Sequence record: MN850574.1
Length of the DNA stretch: 64,000 bases
Source of the DNA: Escherichia phage kaaroe
Strand: one strand, 5' to 3'
Positions 649 through 39,647 of this stretch are shown in pieces. A program made the translations under genes and the position numbers. Positions within the stretch are counted from its first letter, which is position 1, and the number at the start of each line of letters is the position of its first letter. The notes below the pieces were generated by a model. It was not told where the DNA came from, made no database searches, and saw nothing but the letters and a program-made list of their open reading frames with translations.

Positions 649-677
649 TTGACATGAAAATGCGGTTATCATATAAT
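649..677 (+). promoter_or_regulatory. sigma70-type early promoter inside a hairpin
   Basis: TTGACA 649-654, 17-nt spacer, TATAAT 672-677; stem ATGCGGT 660-666 pairs with ACCGCAT 679-685 so the -10 sits in the loop. Confidence 0.6.
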
Positions 678-711
678 GACCGCATCAAATGAACGATGTG
701 AGGATTATATT

Positions 712-1020
712 ATGTTTATCTCTTCTGCTACTCCAGTTAAAGTTTACGGCGAAACTGTGTATCTTCCGGCTGGCTATCGCTATGTTATCGTTGACCGTCA
801 CGGTGTAGTGTATGCTTTTAAAGGCCGTCCGGTTGAGATTGATTCTGAATACGGTACATGGGGATATAAAGCCGCATACATGGATATTCCTGATTTGGGA
901 GTACGTTTAGGAAGATTTGATAATGATGTTAAACCATGCTTGATTAAGTATGCATCCTATGGTAAAACTGTTAAACCAAATAGCGTCGGCTGGATTGATA
1001 ACGGCGTTAACGTGAAATAA
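712..1020 (+). CDS. hypothetical protein
   Basis: ATG 712 preceded by GAGGATTATATT leader; start refined from ORF 676..1020. Confidence 0.5.
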   Translation: MFISSATPVKVYGETVYLPAGYRYVIVDRHGVVYAFKGRPVEIDSEYGTWGYKAAYMDIPDLGVRLGRFDNDVKPCLIKYASYGKTVKPNSVGWIDNGVNVK

Positions 1021-1034
1021 TGTGAGGTGAATTT

Positions 1035-1328
1035 ATGCTGTCTACTAGTAAAATGGTTGTTGGTGTCGCTGAAAATGCTTTAGAAATCGCTGATGAGGCT
1101 TTGACCGTCGCTTATGTTCGACGTGAAGAATTGCTATTGAAACACGCGGATCTATTGGTTGAACGGAAAGAGACTATGAAAGCTGGTAAAAGCACGCTCG
1201 CTATTGCCATTAAACTATCTGATAGTGAAGATGAGATCGTGGAGATCCACACTAAGATCAAGGAAGTAGAAAAATACTCTGAAATGCTGCGACATAATCT
1301 TGATGAATTAGGGGTAAATCATGGCTAA
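1035..1328 (+). CDS. hypothetical protein
   Basis: ORF with GAGGTG RBS. Confidence 0.5.
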   Translation: MLSTSKMVVGVAENALEIADEALTVAYVRREELLLKHADLLVERKETMKAGKSTLAIAIKLSDSEDEIVEIHTKIKEVEKYSEMLRHNLDELGVNHG

Positions 1329-1542
1329 GTTACGATCTGGACGAGTTTTAACGCTGGCTGAACTGAAAGAAAAAGGTTTAGACCCTGATTCTGTAGGTAT
1401 TAGACCTATTAATTACATTCTGTTTCTAGAGGGTAAACTCTTTACTAATGCTCATCCAGCATTAAATGCACCACATTTTTATAAGTGTAATGACTTTAAC
1501 GGTTATATCGTTCCAGAATATTTCTTAGAATTTGATGATTAG
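1321..1542 (+). CDS. hypothetical protein
   Basis: ORF with start overlapping upstream stop. Confidence 0.45.
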   Translation: MAKLRSGRVLTLAELKEKGLDPDSVGIRPINYILFLEGKLFTNAHPALNAPHFYKCNDFNGYIVPEYFLEFDD

Positions 1543-1828
1543 TATAAAACACTCACCGACCGGAAAGGGGTCGGTGATCTTCAATGATGATAAACCGTTA
1601 ATCTTAATTCGAAATGGTGACTGGACATTACATGATACCCGTGTTACTATCCATTCACCGCCTAAAGAGATTCAACGGGAATTGGTTAGGATCGCCCTAA
1701 CCGATAAGCATAAAGAGGCGGTAGGCTATTCTCTTTTGAAGTTGGGTGTTGACTTTCCTTTCGAGTATACGCTAACATTCAGAGAGCAGTCAGTGAAGCT
1801 AACAGAGATTCTATTCTCTGAGATATGA
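1535..1828 (+). CDS. hypothetical protein, start uncertain
   Basis: ORF; a strong hairpin at 1553-1577 lies inside the 5' end, so the true start may be GTG 1574. Confidence 0.35.
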   Translation: MISIKHSPTGKGSVIFNDDKPLILIRNGDWTLHDTRVTIHSPPKEIQRELVRIALTDKHKEAVGYSLLKLGVDFPFEYTLTFREQSVKLTEILFSEI

Positions 1829-1838
1829 GGATTATATA

Positions 1839-2270
1839 ATGGTTTATCCAACCCCTAGTAAGATTTACATTGACGATACTCATTTTCTTGTTGAAATTAT
1901 GGGTATCAAGTTTAGTGGTAATGTTAAAATTGTAGAATGGGAATTGCACGGTCAATCTGTAACCGATTATGACCATTATATCCCTTTCGGTGGCGATGAT
2001 AACTTTGTTTCATTCGACCATGAAGGTTACATGAACTTTGAGCAAGACGATGTACCTTTGTATCTGGCAATGATGGATATTCCTACTAAAACAGAATATA
2101 CAGAGGGTGATTGCGATTGTTGCGGATACTACAGCGTAACAGATATTAAGCTGCTATCCGGTAAAGAACTTTACAAAGAGGATCATTTCGGAAACTGCAA
2201 TTTTCCGTGTGATTGGCAAGAATTTTTCGAACTGGTAGAGATTGAGCGAACTTATGTGAGGAAGGGATAA
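1839..2270 (+). CDS. hypothetical Cys-rich protein
   Basis: ORF with GAGGATTATATAATG start context; CDCCGYY and CNFPCDW motifs. Confidence 0.5.
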   Translation: MVYPTPSKIYIDDTHFLVEIMGIKFSGNVKIVEWELHGQSVTDYDHYIPFGGDDNFVSFDHEGYMNFEQDDVPLYLAMMDIPTKTEYTEGDCDCCGYYSVTDIKLLSGKELYKEDHFGNCNFPCDWQEFFELVEIERTYVRKG

Positions 2271-3082
2271 TGAAGAAAGCATTAGGTTTAATTCCCTATA
2301 CTGGCAATAAGGAAAAGTTATTGCCGGGTGTTAGTAAGTATTTCCCTAAGCACTATAACCGCTTTGTTGATGCCTTTTGTGGCGGCTTGAGCGTGTCTCT
2401 GTACGTAGAAGGGGATGTGCTGGCTAATGACTATGATCACCGCTTAATTGAAGCGTACAAAGCGATTGACGAGTGTCCTGATCCGGTTTCTACGATCAAG
2501 CGGATTATTGCCGAGAATGATTTGTCTCGTGATGATAAAGATGCTTACATGGCATTCCGTAAGAAGTATAATGAGAATCCAGATCCGCTATCTCTGTTTG
2601 TTCTGATTCAGCACAGTTTTAGCAACATTAACCGTCATAACAGGAAGGGCGAATTTAATGCTAATTTTGGTCGCCGGACTTTTAACGAAAACGCGGTAGA
2701 GCGTGTCCTGAATTTTAAGGAAGAAAACAAAGACGGTCGAATCAGTTTTACGTCTGGTCGTTATGACGAGATCGAGATCTTGCCAGGTGATTTCGTTTAT
2801 TTGGACCCGCCGTACCTTATCACTTCTGCGGAATATAATAAGTTCTGGAGTGACGAGGAAGAGATTAAATTCTATCAGTGGGTAGAATCTATTATGGCGC
2901 GTGGTTTTCAGTTTGGTATAAGTAATGTCACGCATCATAAGGGAAAGGCAAATGATCATCTTCTTGACTTTATCAAGCGGAATGATTTAAACTGCGTCTT
3001 GTTGAATAAGACCTATTGCCTAGATCGTTCAGGTGGCAAGTCTTCTGATACGCAAGAAGTTTATGTAACTAACGTAGATTGA
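2270..3082 (+). CDS. dam: DNA adenine methyltransferase Dam
   Basis: N-terminal YTGNKxKLLP..FVDxFCGGLSVSL and DPPY motif; colinear with recalled T4 Dam. Confidence 0.85.
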   Translation: MKKALGLIPYTGNKEKLLPGVSKYFPKHYNRFVDAFCGGLSVSLYVEGDVLANDYDHRLIEAYKAIDECPDPVSTIKRIIAENDLSRDDKDAYMAFRKKYNENPDPLSLFVLIQHSFSNINRHNRKGEFNANFGRRTFNENAVERVLNFKEENKDGRISFTSGRYDEIEILPGDFVYLDPPYLITSAEYNKFWSDEEEIKFYQWVESIMARGFQFGISNVTHHKGKANDHLLDFIKRNDLNCVLLNKTYCLDRSGGKSSDTQEVYVTNVD

Positions 3083-3090
3083 GGTATAAC

Positions 3091-3372
3091 ATGGTAGAAA
3101 TTTTTGGTTTTGAAGGTTACAACTGTAAGTATTGCCAGAATGCAAAGCGCCTTTGTGAAGCGCGTAAGATCCCTTACATCTACATTCCGGTTAATGATGG
3201 TGTGGACGAAAACGGTCGCCCGGTAAAGATTGATTCTATCATTGCCGATATTCAGGATCGCGCAGGGGTAGAAGTTATTGCCACCATGCCGCAGATTTTC
3301 TATGATGGTGATTATATCGGTGGCTTTGATGAGTTCCGATCCTTTGTAGTCAAAAACAAGATTAATGGTTAA
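3091..3372 (+). CDS. nrdC: thioredoxin/glutaredoxin-like protein NrdC
   Basis: CKYC redox motif, MPQIFYDGDYIGGFDEF tail similar to recalled T4 NrdC; ATG 3091 after GAGG. Confidence 0.7.
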   Translation: MVEIFGFEGYNCKYCQNAKRLCEARKIPYIYIPVNDGVDENGRPVKIDSIIADIQDRAGVEVIATMPQIFYDGDYIGGFDEFRSFVVKNKING

Positions 3373-3396
3373 ATACCTTCTTTGGAGGGTGAATTT

Positions 3397-3870
3397 ATGT
3401 TACTGACTGCTAAGAGTGCTAAAGAGTACAAACAAGAACTATTCGAAAAACAGGGGGGCATTTGCCCCCTTTGTCAATTGCCACTTTTTGAGGATATGAG
3501 CAAAAACCATCTTGACCACGACCACGATCTAGATGGGAAAGGGCAAGGCCGCGTAAGGGGATTGCTTCATTCGTGTTGCAACCGCCTAGAAGGATCGTTG
3601 ACCGGAGACTTTAAACGGTTTGGTGTTGGTGCTTTAGGTGCTGATTTCGTTGTTTGGGCTACAAACTATGTTAATTACATCAAAGGAGACTACACCAACA
3701 ATCATTTACATCCTCAATATGCTGTTGATAAAGTAAAACGATTTTCACGCTTGACACGCGCGGAGATGGTTGATATTATGGACGCAGAAGGTTTCGATTA
3801 CTGCGACGCTGATACAAGAGAAGAGATCACGAAGAAGTATAAGAAACAATTTATACAAAGATTAAGATAG
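3397..3870 (+). CDS. 49: endonuclease VII (Holliday junction resolvase) gp49
   Basis: MLLTAK..CPLCQ..HLDHDH..RGLLHSCCN matches recalled T4 gp49 zinc-binding/H-N-H region. Confidence 0.85.
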   Translation: MLLTAKSAKEYKQELFEKQGGICPLCQLPLFEDMSKNHLDHDHDLDGKGQGRVRGLLHSCCNRLEGSLTGDFKRFGVGALGADFVVWATNYVNYIKGDYTNNHLHPQYAVDKVKRFSRLTRAEMVDIMDAEGFDYCDADTREEITKKYKKQFIQRLR

Positions 3871-3873
3871 TAG

Positions 3874-3908
3874 TTGACAATAAGAAATGGGAGTAGTAAA
3901 ATACTCCC
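3874..3908 (+). promoter_or_regulatory. early promoter with GGGAGTA/TACTCCC hairpin (PeSL-like)
   Basis: TTGACA 3874-3879, 17-nt spacer, TAAAAT 3897-3902; arms GGGAGTAG 3889-3896 and TACTCCC 3902-3908. Confidence 0.6.
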
Positions 3909-3933
3909 ATCTAATCAAGAAGGAGAATCAACA

Positions 3934-4206
3934 ATGCGTAAGATGTTTAAATCCGGTGTTGCCTATGTTTTTAAATCTGAGCAAGCACATAAAGACTTCT
4001 TAGATGATGAATACGAGGGGGTGAAAGATACCTACGAAGTCATCAAGAATGGGTTTACTGTTCTTAAAGTGTCACCTGTTGGTTATGTAAGTGAAATCTC
4101 GGTTGATGGGAAAACATACACCGCTAAAGACTTTGATCCGCGTTGGGAATTTATGCTGCTTCCGTGTGAGCGCATTCTGTTCCGTGCTGTTCAATTAGTG
4201 AAATGA
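3934..4206 (+). CDS. hypothetical protein, paralog family A member 1
   Basis: AAGGAG RBS; GF(T/K)VLKV..G.V..I.VDG..YT..DF module shared with next two genes. Confidence 0.5.
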   Translation: MRKMFKSGVAYVFKSEQAHKDFLDDEYEGVKDTYEVIKNGFTVLKVSPVGYVSEISVDGKTYTAKDFDPRWEFMLLPCERILFRAVQLVK

Positions 4207-4220
4207 TAGAGGATTATATT

Positions 4221-4787
4221 ATGGTACAGAAAACGTATAAATTGTATCCGGCTAAGTCTTCAAATGATGCTGTTTTTGAACGAGGTCGTTATTACACTTT
4301 CCGTAATGCTGAGTCCGCAGAGGAATTTGTTAAACGCTACCCACAACATAACAAGTTCCTGTATGGTGTGCTTCACAGGGGCTTTAAAGTTCTTACGGTT
4401 AATGTTATGGGTAAAGTGTATTTGGTAGAAACTCATGATTATGAGGGTGCATCAATCATGATTGATGCAAGCGAGCGCAAATACTTTAAACGCATCACTA
4501 AAAAGCAGTTTGAAGAAATGAAACCAGTTAAGAAAGAAGAATCTCTGGAAGATCTGATTAACTTGTTTGGTAAAGTTCGCTCTATCTCCTTTGCGATTGA
4601 AGATGACATTACCGACAATAAAATCTTTATCAAGAACGCGGAAGACCTGAAAGAGTTCCTTATTGAAAATAGATCTCGGCTGGAAACCTTTCTTGAAAGT
4701 GAAATTATTCGACATGATACCTACGCTAAATTCAGCGCCGATAAAGTAGCTGAACTGAAAGAGATCCAAAAGTCATTTAACGCTTGA
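4221..4787 (+). CDS. hypothetical protein, paralog family A member 2
   Basis: Shares GFKVLTV and ERKYFKRITKKQFEEM modules with 4844..6022. Confidence 0.55.
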   Translation: MVQKTYKLYPAKSSNDAVFERGRYYTFRNAESAEEFVKRYPQHNKFLYGVLHRGFKVLTVNVMGKVYLVETHDYEGASIMIDASERKYFKRITKKQFEEMKPVKKEESLEDLINLFGKVRSISFAIEDDITDNKIFIKNAEDLKEFLIENRSRLETFLESEIIRHDTYAKFSADKVAELKEIQKSFNA

Positions 4788-4818
4788 CATGATGAAACGG
4801 GAGTAGTAAGATACTCCC
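4784..4818 (+). promoter_or_regulatory. early promoter with GGGAGTA/TACTCCC hairpin (PeSL-like)
   Basis: TTGACA 4784-4789, 17-nt spacer, TAAGAT 4807-4812, arms GGGAGTAG/TACTCCC. Confidence 0.6.
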
Positions 4819-4843
4819 ATCTAAACAACGAGAGGATTATATT

Positions 4844-6022
4844 ATGGCTAAATTCTTTGAAGGTCATTACTATGCATTCCGTGAAGGCGGTAAAGATGAG
4901 TTTCTAGACTTTTCTCGCTATTCAATTATTCTGACCGATGCTTCGCGCCGTGGTCATATTCGGGTTGCTGAAATCGTAGAAAAGGGCTTTAAAGTATTAG
5001 AAAAAGATGACCACGGTCATGTTATTACTATTGAAGCTGGAGATGTAGTTTATTCCGCTGAGGATATCGTTTATTATTGGTCTACTATGATTATGCACAA
5101 TGAGCGCAAATACTTTAAACGTATCTCAAAAGAGGCATACGAAGCGATGAACAAGAAAGAGGATGCAATGCCGACTTACTTTGAAAAAGGTAAATGTTAT
5201 TCGTTTACCCCAGAAGGTTTGCAAGAATTTAAGCGATTCTGGGGAGAGCATGACCCAGAGCACAAAGAAGCCATGAAACTTGTTGATTTTGTCGAATATG
5301 GCTTTTTAGTTGAAGAAGAATTGCACGGATCAGCTACCATGATCACCGCGAAAGGTGAAACCGTCAAGGCGGACCGTTTTTGTGATCAATGGAATTGCTT
5401 GTTTGACGGTAGCGAATTTGAATACTTCGCGGAAATCACGAAACAACAATTTCATTCTATGCAAGCGGATGGTCAGAGATTTAAAGTAGGTGAACGCTAC
5501 AAACCAAATCAGCATAATTTGCCATATTGGTTTACCGCTGAAACTGTATCAAGTCATGTTGTTGAAATTGTTCAAAAGCTGGGACAAGGATTTAAGGTAA
5601 CTAAAGTAGATGATTATGGAAGTGTTGACGCGGTTGAAATTGATGGTGTAGAATATACACCGAAATCTTTCGGTCTTTGCTGGTATCACTTGATCAGCAA
5701 TGATGAACGTTATAACTTTGTTGAACTGCCATCTGAACCGGAAGAAGCACTAGAAGATCATGATCATCTGTCTGAACTGGTTAAGCTGTTTGGTGATCTG
5801 CCGGATGGTGTAGGCGTGGCGGTAATGGGTGAAGGTGCTGTTATCCGAAACCTGAAAGACTTTAAAAAGTTCTTGATTGACATGCTGCCTAAACTTGATG
5901 ATAATCTAGATACAGATATTCAGAATCGCAAAGAAATTGTTAAAGAGACTGAAAAAGAGATCGAAGAGATTCGAGCAATTCGCCAGAAGGTGAAAGCAGT
6001 AAAGAAAAAAGTTAGTGCTTGA
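4844..6022 (+). CDS. hypothetical protein, paralog family A member 3 (internally repeated)
   Basis: Contains GFKVLEK, GFKVTKV, ERKYFKRISKEAYEAM and EFEYFAEITKQQFHSM repeats of the family A module. Confidence 0.6.
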   Translation: MAKFFEGHYYAFREGGKDEFLDFSRYSIILTDASRRGHIRVAEIVEKGFKVLEKDDHGHVITIEAGDVVYSAEDIVYYWSTMIMHNERKYFKRISKEAYEAMNKKEDAMPTYFEKGKCYSFTPEGLQEFKRFWGEHDPEHKEAMKLVDFVEYGFLVEEELHGSATMITAKGETVKADRFCDQWNCLFDGSEFEYFAEITKQQFHSMQADGQRFKVGERYKPNQHNLPYWFTAETVSSHVVEIVQKLGQGFKVTKVDDYGSVDAVEIDGVEYTPKSFGLCWYHLISNDERYNFVELPSEPEEALEDHDHLSELVKLFGDLPDGVGVAVMGEGAVIRNLKDFKKFLIDMLPKLDDNLDTDIQNRKEIVKETEKEIEEIRAIRQKVKAVKKKVSA

Positions 6023-6053
6023 CATGCGAAGGGAGTATGCTATAATACTCCCA
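6019..6053 (+). promoter_or_regulatory. early promoter with GGGAGTA/TACTCCC hairpin (PeSL-like)
   Basis: TTGACA 6019-6024, TATAAT 6041-6046, arms GGGAGTA 6031-6037 and TACTCCC 6047-6053. Confidence 0.6.
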
Positions 6054-6076
6054 CTTAACAACGAGAGGATTATATT

Positions 6077-6571
6077 ATGTGGGTACAAGATGTTTGGTAT
6101 ACTGTAACTAAAGAAAACCTTGACGCATTCAGCGACCAATCTTGCGCTAATAGCTCAATTGCTGGTATACTTACTGATGTGTTTGGTGGTGTAGATAAAA
6201 TTCGTTTTAAAGTTGTTGTTAGTTCGCTGGGTCAGGTGAAAGATCTTTACACCGAAGATAAAGACCTTGATCTTGAACTTCGTCTTCGTATTGATAATGC
6301 AAGTCTAGGTTATTGGTTTGAAGATAACGAATATGAATACTTCACGCCAGCAATTAAAGTTTTTGCGACTAAACTGGAAGCTGTACTGAATCTCCGACCA
6401 ATTAATGTTGACGGATACATTATCAAAAATATTCAGGATTGGGAGTTGTATCTAGATCAGGTTATCCGAAATAGTAAGCAGGAAGCCGCTAATAAGAAGC
6501 GACAAGAGATTAAACAGCTTAAAGCTGAACTAGAAGCTAAAGAAAAAGAATTAGCAGAACTGGTAAAATAA
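6077..6571 (+). CDS. hypothetical protein with C-terminal coiled coil
   Basis: GAGAGGATTATATTATG start context; C-terminal heptad-like KQLKAELEAKEKELAELVK. Confidence 0.5.
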   Translation: MWVQDVWYTVTKENLDAFSDQSCANSSIAGILTDVFGGVDKIRFKVVVSSLGQVKDLYTEDKDLDLELRLRIDNASLGYWFEDNEYEYFTPAIKVFATKLEAVLNLRPINVDGYIIKNIQDWELYLDQVIRNSKQEAANKKRQEIKQLKAELEAKEKELAELVK

Positions 6572-6581
6572 CTATCAACGA

Positions 6582-6603
6582 GCGGGAGAAATCCCGCTTT
6601 TTC
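6582..6603 (+). terminator. intrinsic terminator
   Basis: GCGGGAgaaaTCCCGC followed by TTTTTC. Confidence 0.6.
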
Positions 6604-6615
6604 ATAGGTGATACA

Positions 6616-8478
6616 ATGGAAAAACTAATCAAAGACATTACAGAGATCGCAACGGGTAAAGAAAACGAAGTAAGCAAAGAGAACGCGAACAAAGACGCGC
6701 GAACATTCCCGACACGTCGAGATCTGATTGCTGGTGCTGTGTCTAAACAGATTGCTAAAACCGTGTTACCTGAGCACATCTATAAAGCGCATGTAGACGG
6801 TGACATTCATTATCATGATATGGATTATGCACCCGCTATGCCGTTTACTAACTGCTGTCTTGTTAATCTCAAAGACATGTTAGAGAATGGTTTTAAATTG
6901 GGTAGCGCACAAATCGAAAGTCCGAAATCAATCGGCGTTGCTTGTGCTGTAACCGCTCAAATTATCGCACAGGTGGCAAGTCATCAATATGGCGGGACCA
7001 CAATCGCAAACATCGATCAGGTGTTAGCACCGTATGTTGAGAAAACATATCATAAACACCTTGCTGATGCCGAAACCTACGGAATCAAAGCTGATACTCT
7101 CTATGCACAAGAGAAGACAGAAAAAGAAACTTTAGACGGGTATCAAGCGTTGGAATATGAAATCAACACTTTGTTCTCCACCAACGGTCAAACGCCTTTT
7201 GTGACTTTAACCTTTGGTATGGGTACTAGCTGGGAAGAAAAACTGATTCAGAAAGCGATCCTGAACGTTCGAACTAAAGGTTTAGGTAAAGATGGTATCA
7301 CTCCGGTGTTTCCTAAGCTGGTGATGTTCTTAGAAGAAGGATTAAACCTTAAACCGGAAGATCCGAACTACGACATTAAGCAACTTGCATTGGAATGTTC
7401 TAGTAAGCGTCTTTACCCTGATTATATCTCTGCGAAGAATAACCGTAGTATCACCGGATCTAGTGTTCCGGTTAGCCCGATGGGTTGTCGTAGCTTCCTG
7501 GGTGTGTGGCATAATGAGAAAGGCGAAGAAGTATTAGACGGACGTAATAACTTGGGTGTTGTGACCCTGAATCTTCCGCGTATTGCCCTTATTGCCGCGC
7601 GTCGTGCTGGTAAAGCGTCTGTAATGCGCAGAATTGAGCTATTCGAACAAGAGCTAGCCAATCGTATGCCTATTTGCTTTGATGCGCTCATGAGTCGCGT
7701 AGACGCTTTAAAAGGGGCTAAAGCCAATGTTGCTCCGGTGCTGTATACCGAAGGTGCGTTTTTCCGTATTCATCAAAACGATGAAATTTTGGAAGTGTTG
7801 AAAGATGGTCGCGCTAGTATCTCTCTTGGATATATTGGTTTACATGAGGTATTGAGCGTCCTGTTTGGTGTTCATCCGTTTGATTCGGAAGATGCGCAGC
7901 GATACGGTAAACATATTCTTAAGATCTTGCGTCATTATACTGAAAAATGGAAGGACGAAACCGGACTTGGGTTTAGTCTTTACGGTACTCCAGCCGAGAG
8001 CCTTTGCTATCGATTTAATCGACTGGACCGAGAGCAATTTGGTATTGTTAAGGGTGCTACCGATAAAGACTGGTACACCAACTCATTCCACCTTGACGTA
8101 GACCGGAAAGTCACTCCATTTGAGAAAATTGACTTTGAGAAAGATTATCACTGGCTGGCGTCCGGTGGCATGATCTCTTATGTTGAGTTCCCAGACATGA
8201 AAAACAACCTGAAAGGTCTTGAAACTGTAGTAGACTATGCAATGGATAAATTGCACTACTTCGGTGTTAATACTCCTTCTGATGTATGTCATGTATGCGG
8301 ATCTACTAAGGAAATGAGAGCGACCGAGTCTGGTTTTGTTTGTCCTGATTGCGGTAATGACAATCTGGACAAGATGAATGTTATCCGTCGCGTTAGTGGA
8401 TATCTTGGATCTGTTGATCTGCGTCCATTCAACCACGGGAAACACTCCGAGATGGTAAACCGCGTTAAGCACATGTAA
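6616..8478 (+). CDS. nrdD: anaerobic ribonucleoside-triphosphate reductase NrdD, uninterrupted
   Basis: Near full-length colinearity with recalled T4 NrdD (NANKDARTFPTRRDL..., C-terminal CHVCGST...CPDCG, glycyl-radical region). Confidence 0.95.
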   Translation: MEKLIKDITEIATGKENEVSKENANKDARTFPTRRDLIAGAVSKQIAKTVLPEHIYKAHVDGDIHYHDMDYAPAMPFTNCCLVNLKDMLENGFKLGSAQIESPKSIGVACAVTAQIIAQVASHQYGGTTIANIDQVLAPYVEKTYHKHLADAETYGIKADTLYAQEKTEKETLDGYQALEYEINTLFSTNGQTPFVTLTFGMGTSWEEKLIQKAILNVRTKGLGKDGITPVFPKLVMFLEEGLNLKPEDPNYDIKQLALECSSKRLYPDYISAKNNRSITGSSVPVSPMGCRSFLGVWHNEKGEEVLDGRNNLGVVTLNLPRIALIAARRAGKASVMRRIELFEQELANRMPICFDALMSRVDALKGAKANVAPVLYTEGAFFRIHQNDEILEVLKDGRASISLGYIGLHEVLSVLFGVHPFDSEDAQRYGKHILKILRHYTEKWKDETGLGFSLYGTPAESLCYRFNRLDREQFGIVKGATDKDWYTNSFHLDVDRKVTPFEKIDFEKDYHWLASGGMISYVEFPDMKNNLKGLETVVDYAMDKLHYFGVNTPSDVCHVCGSTKEMRATESGFVCPDCGNDNLDKMNVIRRVSGYLGSVDLRPFNHGKHSEMVNRVKHM

Positions 8479-8483
8479 ATTTC

Positions 8484-8512
8484 AGCCGATCCGAAAGGGT
8501 CGGCTTTTTCGT
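8484..8512 (+). terminator. intrinsic terminator
   Basis: AGCCGATCCgaaaGGGTCGGCT then TTTTTCGTTTT. Confidence 0.65.
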
Positions 8513-8521
8513 TTTGGGGTG

Positions 8522-8549
8522 TTGACAACATGATTAGCTAATGTATAAT
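8522..8549 (+). promoter_or_regulatory. sigma70-type early promoter
   Basis: TTGACA 8522-8527, 16-nt spacer, TATAAT 8544-8549. Confidence 0.55.
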
Positions 8550-8578
8550 GCTCACATCGAAAACAACGAGAGGACAAC

Positions 8579-9118
8579 ATGATGATGTTTTGTGTACTGA
8601 ACAAAGAAGTTAAACTTCGTAAACTGGAAATTGGCGATGGTGTTGTTGTTAAAATGCACGCTAGCACATTGACTAGTTTTAATTTAAAGGAAAGTTTTTT
8701 TATTAGAGGAACGGTGGTTAATATCTGCTGGAGTAAAGGCGAAGGAATCCGTAGCTTTTGCGTAATTGACGATGATAATAACCTGTATGTGATTCGCTAT
8801 CATAATAATTCTGTATTGGTCTATACCGACAATTCACGAGAATTGTATACTCTTGAATTTGTTAAGCGTACTGATTGCGATCGATTTGTTCGTGCTTATG
8901 AAGAAGATGGCTGTTTTGCGACTGAAACAGAAACAAATGAATATGTTCCTATGGAAGTAGGAGCAGAAATTAAACACAAGATCACGGATCGTATTTTTAA
9001 GGTTGTTGCGGTTGCTCATACTCAATTTGTAGCGCAAGCGCCGGATGAAGAATTTATTATCTACAATATTGGTAATGCAAGTTCTCATTTTCATAATGTA
9101 CTATATCGCGACCTTTGA
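8579..9118 (+). CDS. hypothetical protein
   Basis: ORF downstream of promoter with GAGAGG RBS. Confidence 0.5.
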   Translation: MMMFCVLNKEVKLRKLEIGDGVVVKMHASTLTSFNLKESFFIRGTVVNICWSKGEGIRSFCVIDDDNNLYVIRYHNNSVLVYTDNSRELYTLEFVKRTDCDRFVRAYEEDGCFATETETNEYVPMEVGAEIKHKITDRIFKVVAVAHTQFVAQAPDEEFIIYNIGNASSHFHNVLYRDL

Positions 9119-9135
9119 TAATGTGTGAGGTGAAT

Positions 9136-9663
9136 ATGAAATCATTAAACCGTAAGCGTAAAGCACAACGACACAAAGAACGAGCTAAAAAGATTGCTAT
9201 TGAACTGGTTGAGCGTGAGGATAGCTATTTGTCTACGGGTCGTTTGTATACATTCCATGCATTGATTGATGGTAAGCCAGTGTTGCATAATCATGATTGC
9301 TTAGCACTGTTTCACGAGATCGAACCAATCCATCGTGAATGGGATGACAACAAAGCAAAAGGACAATATTTCCTTACTTGTTCGTGTGGTCATGCTGGAT
9401 GTGCTGGATATTGGGAACCTGTTACGATCCGTGAGAAAAATGATACTATTCAATGGGTCGCCCGTACCCGCGATGGTTATGATAAAGGTGCTGATGGTAC
9501 TGGCGATAACGTAGTTTACTTTAATCGTGATTGGTATTATATGGCGCGATGTATGATCCTGTTTTATCTTGACTCGATGCCGTATGAATATTTCAGTTTC
9601 CAGAATGGGACCGAACTGACAGGGAAGGAATGGTCTGAATACATTCGAAAAAATTTAAAATAA
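9136..9663 (+). CDS. hypothetical Cys-containing protein
   Basis: ATG 9136 after GAGGTG; CSCGHAGCAGYW motif. Confidence 0.5.
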   Translation: MKSLNRKRKAQRHKERAKKIAIELVEREDSYLSTGRLYTFHALIDGKPVLHNHDCLALFHEIEPIHREWDDNKAKGQYFLTCSCGHAGCAGYWEPVTIREKNDTIQWVARTRDGYDKGADGTGDNVVYFNRDWYYMARCMILFYLDSMPYEYFSFQNGTELTGKEWSEYIRKNLK

Positions 9664-9667
9664 ATGC

Positions 9668-9696
9668 TTGACGGGGATCGCGAGATCCCCTATACT
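9668..9696 (+). promoter_or_regulatory. early promoter with GGGGATC/GATCCCC hairpin
   Basis: TTGACG 9668-9673, 17-nt spacer, TATACT 9691-9696; palindrome GGGGATCgcgaGATCCCC 9673-9690. Confidence 0.5.
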
Positions 9697-9738
9697 ATAT
9701 TCATCAAGACGAGATACAACTTTACAGGAGAATCAAAT

Positions 9739-9891
9739 ATGTGGACTTTACTGATTTGGGAAACTGAAAACGCACAAGTAGAAATCCGTGAATACGAATA
9801 CCTAAGCCCAGCTTATCTATTAGCATCTCGCGGTGGTTACTATAAAGCGCAGATTGTAAACGAGTTCGGGGTAATTGAATATGAGTTCTGA
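9739..9891 (+). CDS. hypothetical small protein
   Basis: AGGAGAATCAAAT leader then ATG 9739; 50 aa. Confidence 0.35.
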   Translation: MWTLLIWETENAQVEIREYEYLSPAYLLASRGGYYKAQIVNEFGVIEYEF

Positions 9892-10384: not shown

Positions 10385-10394
10385 GGTGATTATT

Positions 10395-10922: not shown

Positions 10923-10926
10923 TATT

Positions 10927-11391: not shown

Positions 11392-11403
11392 GGGGAATAT
11401 ATT

Positions 11404-15472: not shown

Positions 15473-15689
15473 CATTTCCCGTTTGCTGGAAGAAGCAGAG
15501 TTTGAAACTGACCTTGTGCCGTATTTCGCCAAATTATTTTTGAGAGATTGCGGCGTTCCGGTGATTATCGATCCGTGCAATATCAAATCACCGGATCTTG
15601 AGGTCTTTACGGGTACAATCTCACATAGCTATAATGTATCAGAAGATGAATTTTCTTTAATAATTGATTATATCCCAGAGGTAAAATAA
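15456..15689 (+). CDS. hypothetical protein
   Basis: ORF with start overlapping end of gene 55. Confidence 0.35.
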
Positions 15690-15690
15690 T

Positions 15691-29766: not shown

Positions 29767-29772
29767 TAAAAT

Positions 29773-29788
29773 GCGCCCTGCGGGGCGC
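29773..29788 (+). other. GC-rich hairpin without T-run
   Basis: GCGCCCtgcgGGGCGC immediately after gene 41 stop. Confidence 0.35.
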
Positions 29789-29816
29789 TGGTGAATGATT
29801 TGATAGGAGATATAAC

Positions 29817-30452
29817 ATGATCGCTAATGCTTTACCGCCAAAATGGATCGTAAGTCGCTTTTATACTCTCAAGGAAGGTAACGCACCTGATGGTCGTCCG
29901 ATCCGAGATCTGTTTCTGGAGATGACTACAGCCGAAGCACAGTTTTATAATGATCTGACAGACGATAAGCCATTTCTCGTAAATTCGGTGGACCTTGATG
30001 GCAATGTCACATCAATCATCACACATGGTGGGGGAGTGAAAAATATTACTTCTCTGCGTGATCACGGTTGGGAAATTGCTTGTGTATTTCCTGCGGATGT
30101 ACGCGGATTCTTTGATGAGGTATCTGATATTAAAGTAAATGCACTGGAACCATATGACGAGATCCCACCACTGAAAGAAGAAAAAGAGTTGACACCGGAA
30201 GATGTAGATAGTACACTACACCCCGACCTATTTAAGAAGATTAGCGGTTTATGGACTGTTACCCTGTATCCAACCGCATTAGGTCTAGAATTGGGTATGC
30301 CAACTTATTCTGATATTGATAATTGGAATAAGAGCATTGATAAAGATGTTGAAAAACAGCGAAATAATGCTAAAATGCAACTTAAAGAGAAACGCAAAGA
30401 TCTTGAACGACAACTGAAAGAAACAAAACGTTTGCTTTCTACATTCGCTTGA
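29817..30452 (+). CDS. hypothetical protein
   Basis: ORF with GGAGA RBS. Confidence 0.5.
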   Translation: MIANALPPKWIVSRFYTLKEGNAPDGRPIRDLFLEMTTAEAQFYNDLTDDKPFLVNSVDLDGNVTSIITHGGGVKNITSLRDHGWEIACVFPADVRGFFDEVSDIKVNALEPYDEIPPLKEEKELTPEDVDSTLHPDLFKKISGLWTVTLYPTALGLELGMPTYSDIDNWNKSIDKDVEKQRNNAKMQLKEKRKDLERQLKETKRLLSTFA

Positions 30453-30482
30453 TCTATAATGAAACTCTAAGGAGACGATATT

Positions 30483-30860
30483 ATGAAAAATATGATTACG
30501 CCGGAAGATGTAGCATTCAAAACCGCATTCAACGGAGATATTCTTATTTTTATCGACGGTAAACACGCCGGAATGATTGAACCGGAAGGTCGCTGGGGTG
30601 TTGCTGAACTATATAACGTGGCGGGTGTAGAAGGTCATAAAACAGCACTTGTTTTCTTGTCAGATAAAGATCAAATGCGTCGAAAAATTGCTGCGCTCTA
30701 TAATGAAGCAGTATATTTCTACGAACCGTTTCATCGTATTAAAACGATCTCCCGCGTGACTCGAAAAGATGTTAATGCTTGTGTTATCAAGATTGTAGAG
30801 AATCAGGATAAACTGACGAAAGACCAGATTGTTGACTTACTGAAAGAGATTATTCTATGA
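30483..30860 (+). CDS. hypothetical protein
   Basis: AAGGAGACGATATTATG start context. Confidence 0.5.
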   Translation: MKNMITPEDVAFKTAFNGDILIFIDGKHAGMIEPEGRWGVAELYNVAGVEGHKTALVFLSDKDQMRRKIAALYNEAVYFYEPFHRIKTISRVTRKDVNACVIKIVENQDKLTKDQIVDLLKEIIL

Positions 30861-31180
30861 TTGGATTTAAACAGTTTGTTGAAGAAAATAAACTCAAAGA
30901 AGATATGACCGCTGGCGATGCTGGCGGCAATCCTGAGAAGATCGCAGCAGGTGAAACGAGCGGATCTATTACCAATCGTGGACCTAGTGTAGCGGGTAAA
31001 GAAAAACGCAAAAAGGAGAAAGACGGTGCTTAGTATCATCATGTTTATCGTTGGCTTGCTGTCCGCTATTATCGGTGTTGTTGTTTTCGGATTATCTGGA
31101 CACAAAACAAAAACAGAAAAGTTATCCGAGATCACAATGTATGTTGGTGTAGTTCTCATTCTGTTGTCGGTGGCGCTTAA

Positions 31181-31384
31181 ATGATTACGATGAAATGTCT
31201 TAAAAGCACATATGCACTTTTTGAAGCCGGAAAAGAATATGAATTTACAGAACTTGATTCGGTAGGCCGTTTTCGTGTATTCTCTTACACATCGCCAGAT
31301 GGTAGTGTCTACAAATTTGGCTTAGATGAAAACGGAGAGAATGAAAATGAAAGTGTAGGAACTTTCATGAAATTTGAGCTATAA
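31181..31384 (+). CDS. hypothetical protein
   Basis: Small ORF upstream of primase. Confidence 0.4.
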   Translation: MITMKCLKSTYALFEAGKEYEFTELDSVGRFRVFSYTSPDGSVYKFGLDENGENENESVGTFMKFEL

Positions 31385-31393
31385 GAGGTTATT

Positions 31394-32422
31394 ATGATTT
31401 ACTACGCAGATTATGAAATAGCGGAAAAAGCCATATACGGCGAACGAAATTTTAAACGGTTGCATACTAGCTCATTTACGCTGGTCTGTAGTTGTCCGAT
31501 CTGCGGTGACTCAAAGAAAAATCATACTCAAGCGCGATTCCGTATCTATACCTATAAAGATAGTTTGCGTTGTGGTTGTTTCAACTGTAACTACAATCAG
31601 CCGTTAGGTGAATTTCTCAAACAGTATAAGCCGGACCTATTCAGGGAATGGCTTATGGAACGACGGAAGGAACAAGGCGACCACAAGAACACCACGTTCA
31701 AGCCACTGAAAAAGGTAGAAAAGCCGGAGATTAAGAAAGTGCAAACATTGCCTTTCTGCGAGAGATTAGATACTCTTCCGGCTAATCATCCTATAATAAA
31801 GTATGTCAGTGATCGTTGCATCCCTCACGATAAATGGGATCTTCTGTATTTCACGAGAGAATGGCAAAAGGTAGCAAATCACATTAAGGCTGATACTTTC
31901 AAGAATCCACAACCTGAACCGCGTTTAGTGATTCCTATCTTTAACCGAGAGAACAAGATAGAATCCATTCAGGGGCGAGCATTGAGAAAGGATTACGGAA
32001 AGACCAAATATATGACGATTAAAACTCATGAGTTAGCGAGTAAGGTCTATGGTCTTGAACGAGCCGATCCGAGTAAACCAGTGTATTTCTTAGAAGGTCC
32101 GATCGATTCATTGTTTATTGATAACGGGTGTGCAATTACTGGCGGTACTTTGGGATTAGATGAAATTCCTTTCCCTGATCAGCGAGTGTTTGTACTTGAT
32201 GCGGAACCACGGTCTGCCGATACAATGCACCGACTGGAAAAGTTTATCAATGCAGGGGAAAAGATTGTATTGTGGGACCGTTGCCCGTGGCATTCTAAAG
32301 ACGTTAACGCCATGATTCAAGACGAGGGCGCTACACGCGACCAGATCATGGAATATATCAAAGAGAACACCGTACAAGGTCTGATGGCTAAAATGCGGTT
32401 TATGAAATATTGTAAATTTTAA
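31394..32422 (+). CDS. 61: DNA primase gp61
   Basis: N-terminal zinc ribbon CPICGDSKKN..CFNCNY, EPRLVIPI, EGPIDSLFI and GATRDQIMEY colinear with recalled T4 gp61. Confidence 0.9.
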   Translation: MIYYADYEIAEKAIYGERNFKRLHTSSFTLVCSCPICGDSKKNHTQARFRIYTYKDSLRCGCFNCNYNQPLGEFLKQYKPDLFREWLMERRKEQGDHKNTTFKPLKKVEKPEIKKVQTLPFCERLDTLPANHPIIKYVSDRCIPHDKWDLLYFTREWQKVANHIKADTFKNPQPEPRLVIPIFNRENKIESIQGRALRKDYGKTKYMTIKTHELASKVYGLERADPSKPVYFLEGPIDSLFIDNGCAITGGTLGLDEIPFPDQRVFVLDAEPRSADTMHRLEKFINAGEKIVLWDRCPWHSKDVNAMIQDEGATRDQIMEYIKENTVQGLMAKMRFMKYCKF

Positions 32423-32436
32423 TTAATGAGGTGAAT

Positions 32437-32955
32437 ATGTCAGAATTTAATTCTTGTGCTGGTCTGGTTAACGAAAAAGATATTAACGCGGCTATCGCCG
32501 CATATCATCACGCGATTGCAGAAGGTAAAGATCCGTTTCAGGTGATGCTCGAAATGCAAACTGGTTTGCAGGTTGCATTATCCGAAAAATTTGATTGGGT
32601 CCCAAATCCAACTAAGCTAGAGACTTGCGGTGAAATGCTGGATTGGATGCAACGGATGGATGACGCTATCGCAGACGAAACACGAGAGCTTTACACATCG
32701 CTGGGTGGAATGTCCAATGGTAAAGATGCAAGTGCAATCTGGAAAATGTGGAAAAAGAACCACGGAGAAGCGCGAGCGCGTAAATTCTCTGAACTGTCAC
32801 CGGAAGATCAGCTTGAAGTGAAATTTGAATTTGTGGACGCGATCCACTTCATTCTGTCAAAGATGATCCCGCTGGGTATTGACGCTCAAGAACTCTTTAT
32901 TCTGTACTATCTGAAAAATGCTGAAAACTTCGCCCGTCAAGAACGCGGCTACTAA
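32437..32955 (+). CDS. 56: gp56-like dCTP pyrophosphatase (MazG-like all-alpha NTP pyrophosphatase)
   Basis: Position after gene 61 and C-terminal LSPEDQLEVKFEFVD..LYYLKNAENFARQ acidic-helix pattern; sequence match to T4 gp56 is from memory only. Confidence 0.5.
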   Translation: MSEFNSCAGLVNEKDINAAIAAYHHAIAEGKDPFQVMLEMQTGLQVALSEKFDWVPNPTKLETCGEMLDWMQRMDDAIADETRELYTSLGGMSNGKDASAIWKMWKKNHGEARARKFSELSPEDQLEVKFEFVDAIHFILSKMIPLGIDAQELFILYYLKNAENFARQERGY

Positions 32956-32962: not shown

Positions 32963-32991
32963 TTGACACTACTCTATAATGGTTTTATTAT
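32963..32991 (+). promoter_or_regulatory. sigma70-type early promoter
   Basis: TTGACA 32963-32968, 17-nt spacer, TATTAT 32986-32991. Confidence 0.5.
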
Positions 32992-33021
32992 GCCTCCCGT
33001 CGAAAGATTGGAGGCTTTTTT
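32992..33021 (+). other. hairpin plus U-run that includes the Shine-Dalgarno of the downstream gene
   Basis: GCCTCC 32992-32997 pairs with GGAGGC 33010-33015, then TTTTTT; ATG at 33025. Confidence 0.5.
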
Positions 33022-33024
33022 ATT

Positions 33025-37317: not shown

Positions 37318-37416
37318 GTCATATACTTGACAATCACTCAATTTTTAATATGATTGTTGCAGCCGTCTTTGTGGCGGTTGCAGTAAGTTATGGTTATGTT
37401 ATGAAGAGGTTTAATA

Positions 37417-39240
37417 ATGAGTGAGTTTCGCATTTTATCTGATCGTGAACATGTCCTTAAGCGTGCAGGAATGTATATAGGATCAACAACTTACGAAGAA
37501 CATCAACGTTTCCTGTTCGGTAAATGGACAAAAATTTCATACGTTCCTGGACTGGTTAAAATCATTGATGAGATCATCGACAACTCTGTAGACGAGGCGA
37601 TCCGCACTAACTTTGAATTTGCCAATGTGATTAGCGTCGATATCCAAAACAATATTGTTACTGTAACAGACAATGGTCGCGGTATTCCTCAACATATGGT
37701 TACTACCCCAGAGGGTACGCAGATTCCGCAACCTGTCGCCGCATGGACACGAACAAAAGCAGGGTCTAACTTTGATGATACCAATCGATTAACGCAAGGG
37801 ATGAACGGTGTGGGGTCGTCGTTGTCAAATTTCTTTAGCGATTGGTTTACTGGTGTGACCTGTGACGGCGAAACAGAAATGACCGTTCAATGTACAAACG
37901 GTGCTGAAAATATCACATGGTCATCGAAACCATCAAAATTGAAGGGAACAAAGGTTACATTTTGCCCAGACTTCGACCACTTCGAAGGTTATATGATGGG
38001 CAACTCTGTTTTAGATATTGTTCATGATCGTCTGCAATCATTGAGCGTAATATTTCCTAAGATCACGTTTAAGTTTAATGGTAAACGTATTGTTAGTAAG
38101 TTCAAGGATTATGCTAAACTATACAATGATGATCCGTTTGTCATTGAAGATAAAAACTTTTCACTTGCCCTAGTTCCTGCGGTCGAGGGAGAAGGTTTTA
38201 AATCAGTATCCTTTGCTAATGGTCTGTTTACCAAAAACGGGGGAACACACGTTGATTATGTGACAGATGATCTTTGTGAAGAGATTGTAAAACGAATCAA
38301 GAAAGAATATAAGGTTGATGTTACTAAAGCTGCGGTTAAGTCTGGATTGACCTGTATTCTTATTGTTCGTGAATTGCCTAACCTTCGTTTTGATTCACAG
38401 ACAAAAGAACGATTGACTAATCCAACTGGTGATATCAAGCGTCATATTGATCTTGATTTTAAAAAGCTGGCTAAAGTCATTGCTAAGAAAGAAAACATTA
38501 TCATGCCTATTATTGCTGTAGTCCTGGCACGCAAAGAGGCAGCAGATAAAGCGGCAGCGACTAAGGCAGCAAAGGCAGCGAAACGGGCTAAGGTGGCAAA
38601 ACACGTTAAAGCTAACCTTATTGGAACTGACGCAGAAACTACCCTGTTTTTGACGGAAGGTGATTCCGCGATCAACTATCTGATCTCTGTACGTGATCAA
38701 GATTTACATGGAGGTTTCCCGTTGCGAGGCAAAACTCTTACAACGTGGGAACAACCGGAGGCAAAGATCGTTAAGAACGCCGAAATTTTTAACATCATGG
38801 CGATCACTGGCTTGCAATTTGGTGTTGATGCATTGGAAGTTATGCAATACAAAAATATTGCGATTATGACCGACGCTGATACTGACGGGATCGGGTCTAT
38901 TAAACCTAGTCTGATCTCTTTCTTTGCACGTTGGCCTGAATTGTTCGAAGATGGACGAATCCGGTTTATCAAAACACCTATTATCATTGCGGAACCAAAG
39001 AAAGGTGATGATGTTCGATGGTATTATGACCTAGAAGATTTCGAGAACGACCGAGATAATATCAAAGGTTACAACATTCGATATATCAAAGGTTTAGCAT
39101 CGCTCACAGAATCAGACTATCATCGCGTGATCAACGATCCTGTCATGGAGATCATCACGTTACCGGAAAACTATAAAGAGCTATTCGATTTGCTCTATAG
39201 TGAAGATGCAGATCAGCGCAAAATTTGGATGCAATCATAA
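37417..39240 (+). CDS. 39: topoisomerase II large (GyrB-like ATPase) subunit gp39, unsplit
   Basis: RPGMYIGS-like N-terminus, GHKL ATPase motifs (DNGRGIP), TOPRIM region; continuous 607-aa ORF. Confidence 0.9.
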   Translation: MSEFRILSDREHVLKRAGMYIGSTTYEEHQRFLFGKWTKISYVPGLVKIIDEIIDNSVDEAIRTNFEFANVISVDIQNNIVTVTDNGRGIPQHMVTTPEGTQIPQPVAAWTRTKAGSNFDDTNRLTQGMNGVGSSLSNFFSDWFTGVTCDGETEMTVQCTNGAENITWSSKPSKLKGTKVTFCPDFDHFEGYMMGNSVLDIVHDRLQSLSVIFPKITFKFNGKRIVSKFKDYAKLYNDDPFVIEDKNFSLALVPAVEGEGFKSVSFANGLFTKNGGTHVDYVTDDLCEEIVKRIKKEYKVDVTKAAVKSGLTCILIVRELPNLRFDSQTKERLTNPTGDIKRHIDLDFKKLAKVIAKKENIIMPIIAVVLARKEAADKAAATKAAKAAKRAKVAKHVKANLIGTDAETTLFLTEGDSAINYLISVRDQDLHGGFPLRGKTLTTWEQPEAKIVKNAEIFNIMAITGLQFGVDALEVMQYKNIAIMTDADTDGIGSIKPSLISFFARWPELFEDGRIRFIKTPIIIAEPKKGDDVRWYYDLEDFENDRDNIKGYNIRYIKGLASLTESDYHRVINDPVMEIITLPENYKELFDLLYSEDADQRKIWMQS

Positions 39241-39244
39241 CACT

Positions 39245-39280
39245 TGACATACAAGGGAGATTCTCTATAATGGGAGTCTC
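39245..39280 (+). promoter_or_regulatory. early promoter within GGGAGA/TCTCCC hairpin followed by T-run
   Basis: TTGACA 39245-39250, TATAAT 39266-39271; arms GGGAGA 39255-39260 and TCTCCC 39277-39282 then TTTTCTTTT. Confidence 0.5.
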
Positions 39281-39305
39281 CCTTTTCTTTTATGAGGATT
39301 TAACG

Positions 39306-39605
39306 ATGAGCAAAAAGAATAACATGATGATGAGTATGGCAAAGTTCATGGAAGCAGACCTGATCAAAAATACAGTACAGCATGAACGCCAGCGAGAAGC
39401 CGCAGTGATTGCAGAACAAGGTTTTCAGGTTATCCGCAATCCACCTAAAGATACGATTAAATCGAAATACAGAGAAGATCTGAAAGACCATGAAGTACGG
39501 GAACTGGTTAATGATCTGCGTGACATTGCCATCAAATATCATGGTTATCAGTGCTTACGAGAACTGATCGCAGAGCGAGTAATGGATGCATTGAAAAAAG
39601 ATTAA
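39306..39605 (+). CDS. hypothetical protein
   Basis: GAGGATTTAACGATG start. Confidence 0.45.
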   Translation: MSKKNNMMMSMAKFMEADLIKNTVQHERQREAAVIAEQGFQVIRNPPKDTIKSKYREDLKDHEVRELVNDLRDIAIKYHGYQCLRELIAERVMDALKKD

Positions 39606-39612
39606 AAATCTG

Positions 39613-39647
39613 TTGACACTGGATCGGGGATATATCATAATGTCCCC
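39613..39647 (+). promoter_or_regulatory. early promoter with GGGGA/TCCCC hairpin
   Basis: TTGACA 39613-39618, 17-nt spacer, CATAAT 39636-39641; arms GGGGA 39626-39630 and TCCCC 39643-39647. Confidence 0.5.

Follow-up and report, generated by a model that had tools for sequence, protein, structure and literature searches.

Four hairpin-bearing early promoters of Escherichia phage kaaroe are very probably promoter-early stem-loops of the RB49/phi1 type

About 50 (51 to 52) promoter-early stem-loops (PeSLs) have been reported in each of the phages RB49 and phi1 (Arbiol, Comeau, Kutateladze, Adamia and Krisch, 2010; PMC2839356; PMC4122927). These elements are composed of an early promoter of sigma-70 consensus, an A/T-rich tract upstream and a stem-loop, for which five positions are described: between the two promoter boxes, over the -35, over the -10, 5' of both boxes or 3' of both (PMC2839356). 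They are intergenic, and the gene that follows is often an ORFan. Comeau et al. (2014; PMC4122927) later called them "composite conserved promoter-terminator motifs", with a stem-loop of the form G(n)-loop-C(n) in RB49 and phi1, and added T4/PST and KVP40/nt-1 to the phages in which they are found. The stem-loop of PeSL212/210 cut read-through into lacZ to nearly the same degree as rrnB T1 did, and PeSL206/205, assayed as a promoter, gave approximately 13,000 Miller units (PMC2839356). PeSLs also mark indel junctions and the joints of mini-circles, which was attributed to homologous recombination across the conserved cassette (PMC2839356). In this work we have analyzed a stretch of 64,000 nucleotides of Escherichia phage kaaroe (Genbank accession MN850574.1), referred to here as the window, and within it four hairpin-bearing promoter sites, starting at positions 649, 9668, 39244 and 39613 and named S1 through S4. 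These four sites are very probably PeSLs, i.e., composite promoter-terminator/attenuator cassettes that lie between the early genes of RB49/phi1-type phages and act on read-through RNA. The architecture is already known, having been published in 2010 and 2014, and S1 to S4 are ordinary examples of it; their membership was assigned by anatomy plus the homology of S2 and S4, and not from entries of the published catalogue.

S1 to S4 share with the PeSLs of RB49 and phi1 the genus of the phage, the TTGACA-N16/17-TATAAT promoter, the A/T-rich tract and the position after one gene's stop codon and ahead of the Shine-Dalgarno sequence (SD) and start codon of the following gene, in addition to a stem-loop that lies either between the boxes (S2) or over the -10 (S1, S3, and S4) and cassette edges which coincide with indel or homology breakpoints; nothing essential differs between them. 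As far as the phage is concerned, bases 1-12000 and 15000-25000 of the window align over their full length, with 95-99% identity, to about 58 complete Krischvirus genomes (RB49, Phi1, JSE, GEC-3S, and others), and the window is, by its sequence, that of an RB49-like coliphage of the genus Krischvirus, with an identity of 97-99% to RB49, Phi1, JSE, and about 55 further genomes of this genus. All four sites occupy gaps of 65-75 nt between genes of the + strand, and the genes downstream are the hypothetical open reading frames (ORFs) ORF068, ORF053, ORF005, and ORF004, in the Phi1 numbering that is used throughout. The promoters match the sigma-70 consensus at 12/12 (S1), 10/12 (S2), 12/12 (S3), and 11/12 (S4) positions, and the 20 nt upstream of the -35 have an A+T fraction of 0.80, 0.90, 0.65, and 0.80, respectively. 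The SD is found 9-36 nt 3' of the 3' arm, and sequestration of the SD or the start codon by that arm is thus not seen at the four sites.

The original prediction, made from the letters of the window, had placed promoters with the -10 in or next to a stem at 649, 9668, 39245, and 39613. All are present, the third starting at 39244, and so are all of the arm pairs that had been given for them, the stems at S1, S3, and S4 being longer than listed (Table 1). Inverted repeats at the -10 had been put forward for comparison with shuffled sequence, and in this comparison they are strongly enriched. The set examined comprised the 21 intergenic promoters of the window, each with an SD and a start codon downstream, and perfect stems were scored as length plus G/C count. 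A score of at least 11 was reached by 12/21 of these promoters, where 0.21 were expected when all but the two hexamers was shuffled, and the folding energy summed over the 21 was -310 kcal/mol vs. -188 ± 12 kcal/mol in the shuffles. When only stems that bracket or abut the -10 were considered, with one representative per arm family, 6/17 promoters scored at least 9 (0.35 expected; 0/1000 shuffles). Promoter-like control sequences (n = 57, mostly intragenic) had a stem score of at least 11 in 3.5% of cases as opposed to 57% for the intergenic promoters (Mann-Whitney p = 6e-5), and the RNAs of S1 to S4 fold with z-scores of -2.7 to -4.3 relative to 200 dinucleotide shuffles of each region. A chance origin of the hairpins was thus rejected by hexamer-fixed shuffles, by dinucleotide shuffles and by the intragenic promoter-like controls. 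The promoters themselves are in excess as well, with 12 exact matches to TTGAC-N-TAWAAT in the window where 1.0 was expected. The strong evidence for selection on pairing is this enrichment of hairpins together with their recurrence with unrelated sequences. That the hairpin itself is a functional element of transcription control, as had been predicted, agrees with the enrichment and with the published work on PeSLs (PMC2839356).

The loop of the S3 hairpin is exactly the -10 hexamer, and S3 was the only one of the four sites flagged by a scan for intrinsic terminators (G/C-rich stem of at least 5 bp, loop of 3-8 nt, and at least 5 T in the 8 nt starting 0-2 nt past the stem). Its RNA folds at -21.3 kcal/mol in the sense vs. 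-13.8 kcal/mol in the antisense orientation (z = -4.28). The stem is invariant in 11 phages, though the flank directly 5' of the -35 has been replaced in several of them, and the orthologous sequence is entered as a terminator in three independent Genbank records, those of Makalu_002, GEC-3S, and G2494/ARNold, the GEC-3S record adding an overlapping promoter. By its predicted fold and tail S3 is a canonical intrinsic terminator.

At S2 the -10 stands beside the stem and not within it, which sets this site apart in kind from S1, S3, and S4. The hairpin occupies the whole promoter spacer, its first G being the last base of the -35 and its end lying 1 nt before the -10, and the RNA folds at -13.9 kcal/mol (z = -2.74). 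The tail TATACTATAT, supplied by the -10 hexamer, has 5 T in 10, interspersed, which makes S2 a borderline case as an intrinsic terminator, and the scan did not flag the site. The stem is invariant in RB49, PTE-Eco09, Makalu_002, and SSG23, and Phi1 lacks the outermost pair only. The arms are identical to those of phi1 PeSL212/210 (RB49 211/210), PeSL206/205, and PeSL210/209; PeSL212/210, from the hyperplastic region of phi1, reads TTGACA-GGGGATC-GGT-GATCCCC-T-TATAAT, and PeSL206/205 carries GGGGATC-ACC-GATCCCC-TATACT, with arms and layout as in S2. The 3-nt loop of this GGGGATC/GATCCCC family is found as the reverse complements GGT and ACC among paralogs and as GCC and GGC among orthologs; these variants suggest occasional flipping of the loop via the inverted repeat, the GCC/GGC case being ambiguous in that it is a single-base difference.

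S1 and S4 both have the -10 in the loop and the top of the 3' arm. The S4 cassette is a near-copy (paralog) of phi1 PeSL199/198 (TTGACACCGGATCGGGGATATAGCATAATATCCCCATC), while for the arms of S1 and S3 no paralog was found in the approximately 250 kb of sequence compared, and the arms of S1 (GCGG/CCGC) fit the G(n)-loop-C(n) form of the published RB49/phi1 stem-loop less well. The core of S1 folds as RNA at -12.9 kcal/mol sense vs. -10.7 kcal/mol antisense (z = -2.96 for a 69-nt region) and as DNA at -7 kcal/mol (z = -3.56); S4 folds as RNA at -14.3 vs. -9.9 kcal/mol (z = -2.76), and as DNA at only -5.2 kcal/mol (z = -0.9), no better than shuffles. The ortholog of S1 is annotated as a promoter in the GEC-3S record and as a terminator, by ARNold-type software, in that of G2248; the ortholog of S4 is an annotated promoter in the GEC-3S record. 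A scan of IMG/VR anchored on the S1 flanks returned a single contig, and Rfam 15 at gathering threshold gave no match anywhere in the window.

Table 1. Position and composition of the four cassettes (window coordinates; all on the + strand)
Feature	Position	Strand	Description
S1 cassette	642-711	+	5' neighbour, RB49p069/phi1 ORF069 ortholog (stop 639-641); 3' neighbour, RB49p068/ORF068 ortholog (ATG 712)
S1 promoter parts	-35, 649-654; -10, 672-677; SD, 700-704	+	A/T-rich tract; -35 TTGACA; 17-nt spacer; -10 TATAAT; SD GAGGA
S1 stem-loop	660-685	+	ATGCGGTTAT (660-669) / loop CATATA / ATGACCGCAT (676-685); 10 bp, one G.U
S2 cassette	9664-9738	+	5' neighbour, ORF054 ortholog (stop 9661-9663); 3' neighbour, ORF053 ortholog (ATG 9739); just 5' of nrdG
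S2 promoter parts	-35, 9668-9673; -10, 9691-9696; SD, 9726-9730	+	-35 TTGACG; 17-nt spacer; -10 TATACT; SD AGGAG
S2 stem-loop	9673-9690	+	GGGGATC (9673-9679) / loop GCGA / GATCCCC (9684-9690); 7 bp
S3 cassette	39241-39305	+	5' neighbour, topoisomerase II large-subunit gene (gene 60+39, stop 39238-39240); 3' neighbour, ORF005 ortholog (ATG 39306)
S3 promoter parts	-35, 39244-39249; -10, 39266-39271; SD, 39294-39298	+	-35 TTGACA; 16-nt spacer; -10 TATAAT; SD GAGGA
S3 intrinsic terminator (predicted)	39253-39291	+	AAGGGAGATTCTC (39253-39265) / loop TATAAT / GGGAGTCTCCCTT (39272-39284), then TTTTCTTTT; 13 bp, 2 G.U
S4 cassette	39606-39671	+	5' neighbour, ORF005 ortholog (stop 39603-39605); 3' neighbour, ORF004 ortholog (ATG 39672)
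S4 promoter parts	-35, 39613-39618; -10, 39636-39641; SD, 39659-39662	+	-35 TTGACA; 17-nt spacer; -10 CATAAT; SD AAGG
S4 stem-loop	39622-39650	+	GAT-c-GGGGATAT (39626-39633) / ATCATA / ATGTCCCC (39640-39647)-ATC; 8+3 bp, one G.U

The way in which these parts may work together can be formulated as follows. A stretch of approximately 40 bp would pack both a terminator or attenuator and a promoter, the stem-loop being interleaved with the promoter so as to fit the small gap. The arms would make use of the spacer and of the discriminator with the first transcribed bases, where a sigma-70 promoter tolerates most sequences, and the -10 would in turn use parts of the hairpin that are equally tolerant, i.e., the 6-nt loop at S1, S3, and S4 and the 3' tail at S2, where UAUACU would supply part of the U-rich tract. 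A transcript started upstream would contain both arms and fold, and would be terminated or attenuated, or else acquire a protected 3' end. A transcript of the embedded promoter would start about 7 nt past the -10, at a point inside the 3' arm or past it; having no 5' arm, it could not fold and would remain unaffected. The arms would be free to differ between cassettes because only pairing matters. We infer action at the RNA level, and likewise a terminator/attenuator activity of S1 and S4. In line with sense-strand RNA action, G.U pairs across 15 hairpins number 11 in the sense folds vs. 4 in the antisense folds, and RNA energies of -13 to -21 kcal/mol are two to three times the -5 to -7.5 kcal/mol calculated for DNA. 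GNRA-type tetraloops are present at S2 (GCGA) and in relatives at 17095 and 21886 (GAAA), and the promoters without an internal hairpin, at 8522 and 46691, each have a canonical terminator directly upstream. These two terminators, at 8484-8505 and 46651-46673, are related to each other (AGCCGATCC...GGTCGGCT plus a T-run), and their AGCCGAC/GTCGGCT arms are shared by Phi1 PeSL197/194, of the PeSL sub-class in which the stem-loop is upstream of the -35.

Compensatory covariation, which had also been claimed, was an overstatement: the arms belong to distinct PeSL sub-families or are singletons, and do not represent aligned homologous positions, and from one to another the loop is displaced by 0-2 nt relative to the -10. 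Among the orthologs of S1 (15 phages), S3, and S4 (11 phages each) no double-sided change was observed, the shuffle control being uninformative for one-sided changes. In S1 (8 haplotypes) 3/10 pairs vary, on one side only (U-A<->U-G, C-G<->U-G), and 97.5% of cells remain paired; in S4 (6 haplotypes) a single pair varies, again on one side, and 100% of cells are paired. This variation is compatible with selection on pairing, but it is weak evidence alone.

A number of observations weigh against the proposal that S1 to S4 are terminators or attenuators of read-through RNA. The stem of S1 is followed by CAAATGAACG, with 1 T in 10 nt, and that of S4 by GAAAACAAAA, with 0 T in 10 nt, so that neither has a T-tract, and the GGGAGTA/TACTCCC arms that recur at five promoters of the window likewise have no U-tract after the stem. 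Efficient intrinsic termination at S1 and S4 is therefore doubtful and is argued from analogy, since they have no U-tract and were not flagged by the terminator scan. The "terminator/attenuator" label itself is based on the sole published terminator assay, which was of one S2-type stem-loop (PMC2839356). The start sites on which the escape of the embedded transcript depends were placed by canonical sigma-70 geometry and not by mapped 5' ends; as mentioned in PMC1524935, Desplats et al. (2002) mapped 5' ends of RB49 early transcripts. Conservation adds only a modest signal, since across 12 hairpins compared in 4-6 relatives the variable columns were 11/238 in stems and 42/507 at other non-hexamer positions (p = 0.09), and in the same hairpins about 7 pair-preserving events stand against about 5 pair-breaking ones, the breaks being mostly at helix ends. 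Only one double compensatory change (A-T to G-C) was seen, and it belongs to the promoter at 23913 upstream of gene 43 and not to S1 to S4. Lastly, tolerance of G.T on the sense strand would also fit a hairpin of the non-template DNA strand.

The absence of the U-tract leads to the question of whether the hairpins concerned, i.e., S1, S4, and the GGGAGTA/TACTCCC family, all with the -10 in the loop, constitute a distinct class of non-terminators, be it RNA 3'-end or processing signals or, more radically, non-template DNA hairpins that expose the -10 in a single-stranded loop and tune promoter opening or seed recombination of the cassettes. We consider this unlikely; if it were true, a loop that stays at 6 nt and centred on the -10 while the arms are unrelated would be a designed feature and not an accident of packing.

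An action at the DNA level would mean that the inverted repeats extrude as cruciforms or fold in the non-template strand, and that they modulate promoter opening or present a structure-specific target, for endonuclease VII or the SbcCD-like nuclease gp46/47, in the recombination of PeSLs and the formation of mini-circles. Both endonuclease VII and gp46/47 are encoded within the window, the sense strand is the non-template strand, with which the G.T asymmetry is compatible, and the reverse-complementary GGT and ACC loops of the GGGGATC-family paralogs are what hairpin-mediated flipping would give. The stem-loops were moreover reported to block sequencing polymerases on single-stranded DNA (Arbiol et al.; PMC2839356). 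PeSLs are recombination junctions in the literature (PMC2839356), and here this is the case at S3 and S2. The topoisomerase gene and S3 are separated by an HNH homing-endonuclease gene in W115, FL15, JSE, and pEJ01, with homology resuming at the TTGACA, and at S2 the homology with Makalu_002 and SSG23 begins approximately 19 nt upstream of the -35; at S1 and S4 no homology breakpoint was seen in the relatives compared. The HNH gene (741-1304 of the W115 segment compared) is free-standing and has its stop codon inside the TTGACA of S3, the insertion being absent from the window. The part of the original prediction that linked the hairpins to recombination thus holds in so far as PeSLs mark indel junctions and mini-circle joints, but the role that has been published is homology of the whole cassette of about 100 bp, which accounts for the published joints, and not that of a hairpin target (PMC2839356). 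The arms of S1 and S3 are furthermore unique and would offer little homology. The stabilities as DNA are small (-5 to -7.5 kcal/mol), S4 being at z = -0.9, and short stems with 6-nt loops extrude poorly as cruciforms. A symmetric cruciform should reject G.T pairs in one strand, which leave A.C opposite, yet S1, S3, and S4 have such pairs, and their antisense folds are weaker. An action of the hairpins as DNA is hence decidedly unlikely.

The hairpins of S1 and S4 could, on the other hand, act as RNA without being terminators, either as elements of 3'-end stability or processing, which would guard the upstream mRNA from 3' exonucleases once an endonuclease has cut it, or as pause sites. The missing T-tract fits with this, as do folds that are stable and strand-specific as RNA, and T4-type phages depend heavily on RegB and RNase E to process their mRNA, RB49 regB being divergent (PMC3014915). 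ARNold-type software did, however, call the S1 ortholog a terminator, and Arbiol et al. label the stem-loops "terminator/attenuator", albeit from one assay (PMC2839356). This explanation, which appears very unlikely, is a refinement of the preferred reading at the RNA level and not a true alternative to it.

A palindromic operator, bound across the -10 by a dimeric phage or host protein that shuts off the early promoters, is extremely unlikely. Inverted repeats over the -10 are the classical layout of an operator, T4-type phages do shut off their early transcription, and the GGGAGTA/TACTCCC arms at five promoters of the window could be such repeats. Nevertheless, a single sequence-specific protein could not read all four sites, because their arms are wholly different and the repeat is displaced by 0-2 nt relative to the -10 or else lies in the spacer. 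The changes among orthologs preserve pairing through G.U and not the dyad symmetry of the duplex, and PeSL cassettes can also carry their hairpin ahead of the -35 or past the -10, both in the window and in the literature (PMC2839356). The operator and the DNA cruciform were accordingly down-weighted on the diversity of the arms, the strand asymmetry of the G.U type and the weak DNA energies. N4-type hairpin promoters and single-strand promoters of the Frpo type were dismissed on anatomy, since the phage is T4-like and the promoters here are duplex ones of sigma-70 consensus.

Other cassettes and hairpins of the window were noted along the way. The + strand orientation of genes extends up to approximately 52 kb, and the sign of the GC skew flips at about 52000, marking the switch from + strand early genes to genes on the minus strand. 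Two hairpins of the GGGAGTA family, at 3885-3912 and 47724-47743, have T-rich tails on the minus strand, where they were flagged as terminator-like and might stop antisense transcription. A promoter at 47396-47440 retains only the right arm (ACTCCC) of the same family, the left arm having been replaced, and looks like a degraded or recombinant PeSL. At 17095-17123, upstream of the ORF that follows gene 47, the spacer hairpin CGGGGA-GAAA-TCCCCG is perfect in four relatives and is broken in the window by a G->T change. Upstream of gene 43 (DNA polymerase), at 23903-23973, the stem ATAGGGG/CCCCTAT surrounds the whole of the -35 and the spacer, and the inner helix ATTGAC/GTCGAT has the compensatory change from A-T to G-C in Makalu_002 and SSG23. 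A further hairpin, TCTTTC-GTAAGT-GAAGGA, lies over the gene 43 SD and may be a translational operator for gp43. Gene 43 is intact in the window (23974-26652, 2.7 kb), unlike in the closest relative, PTE-Eco09, where it is annotated in two pieces (28974-32765) separated by approximately 1.2 kb with three small ORFs.

What has been found is thus a real regulatory architecture, a terminator hairpin and a strong promoter sharing about 40 bp, which a reader of nothing but the sequence had rediscovered. The PeSL layout would insulate each small early gene transcriptionally and provide portable junctions for the shuffling of genes in T4-like phages. Since this knowledge of PeSLs was published in 2010 and 2014 there is nothing in it that is new to the field.

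When set against other described systems, the cassettes share parts of several of them. All of the features of Rho-independent terminators are present at S3 (13-bp G/C-rich stem, 6-nt loop, and TTTTCTTTT tail), and S2 is partly alike (7-bp G/C stem, GNRA-type loop, and a partly U-rich tail); unlike such terminators, S1 to S4 are interleaved with a promoter, and S1 and S4 are without the U-tract that defines the class. Lambdoid "morons" and the internal-protein (IP) locus of T-even phages likewise have small genes with their own promoter and terminator, and cassettes that flank hyper-variable genes. In morons, however, the promoter stands apart from the terminator, and neither is thought to mediate mobility, and the elements of the IP locus have early promoters of the T4 type and stem-loops that are AT-rich and weaker (PMC2839356), both being unlike the PeSL in these respects. 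The same logic as that proposed here is found in genes e, soc, 49, and I-TevI of T4, where read-through RNA folds and the RNA of the embedded promoter, lacking the 5' arm, escapes (PMC3014915); there the promoter is a late one and the 3' arm hides the SD or AUG, so that control is translational, whereas S1 to S4 have an early sigma-70 promoter and an SD outside the 3' arm. A further cassette of the window, at 32963-33024, has TTGACA-17-TATTAT, with the -10 abutting the 5' arm of GCCTCC-(12 nt)-GGAGGC, which is followed by TTTTTT. Its 3' arm is the SD of a modB-like ADP-ribosyltransferase gene (ATG 33025), and the Makalu_002 record has a terminator overlapping that ribosome-binding site. Judging from this arrangement, RNA read through from upstream would either terminate or have its SD hidden, and the promoter's own RNA would be without the 5' arm. 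With its SD in the 3' arm this cassette parallels T4 genes e, soc, 49, and I-TevI (PMC3014915), and it is here that the distinction between own and read-through transcript is at its clearest.

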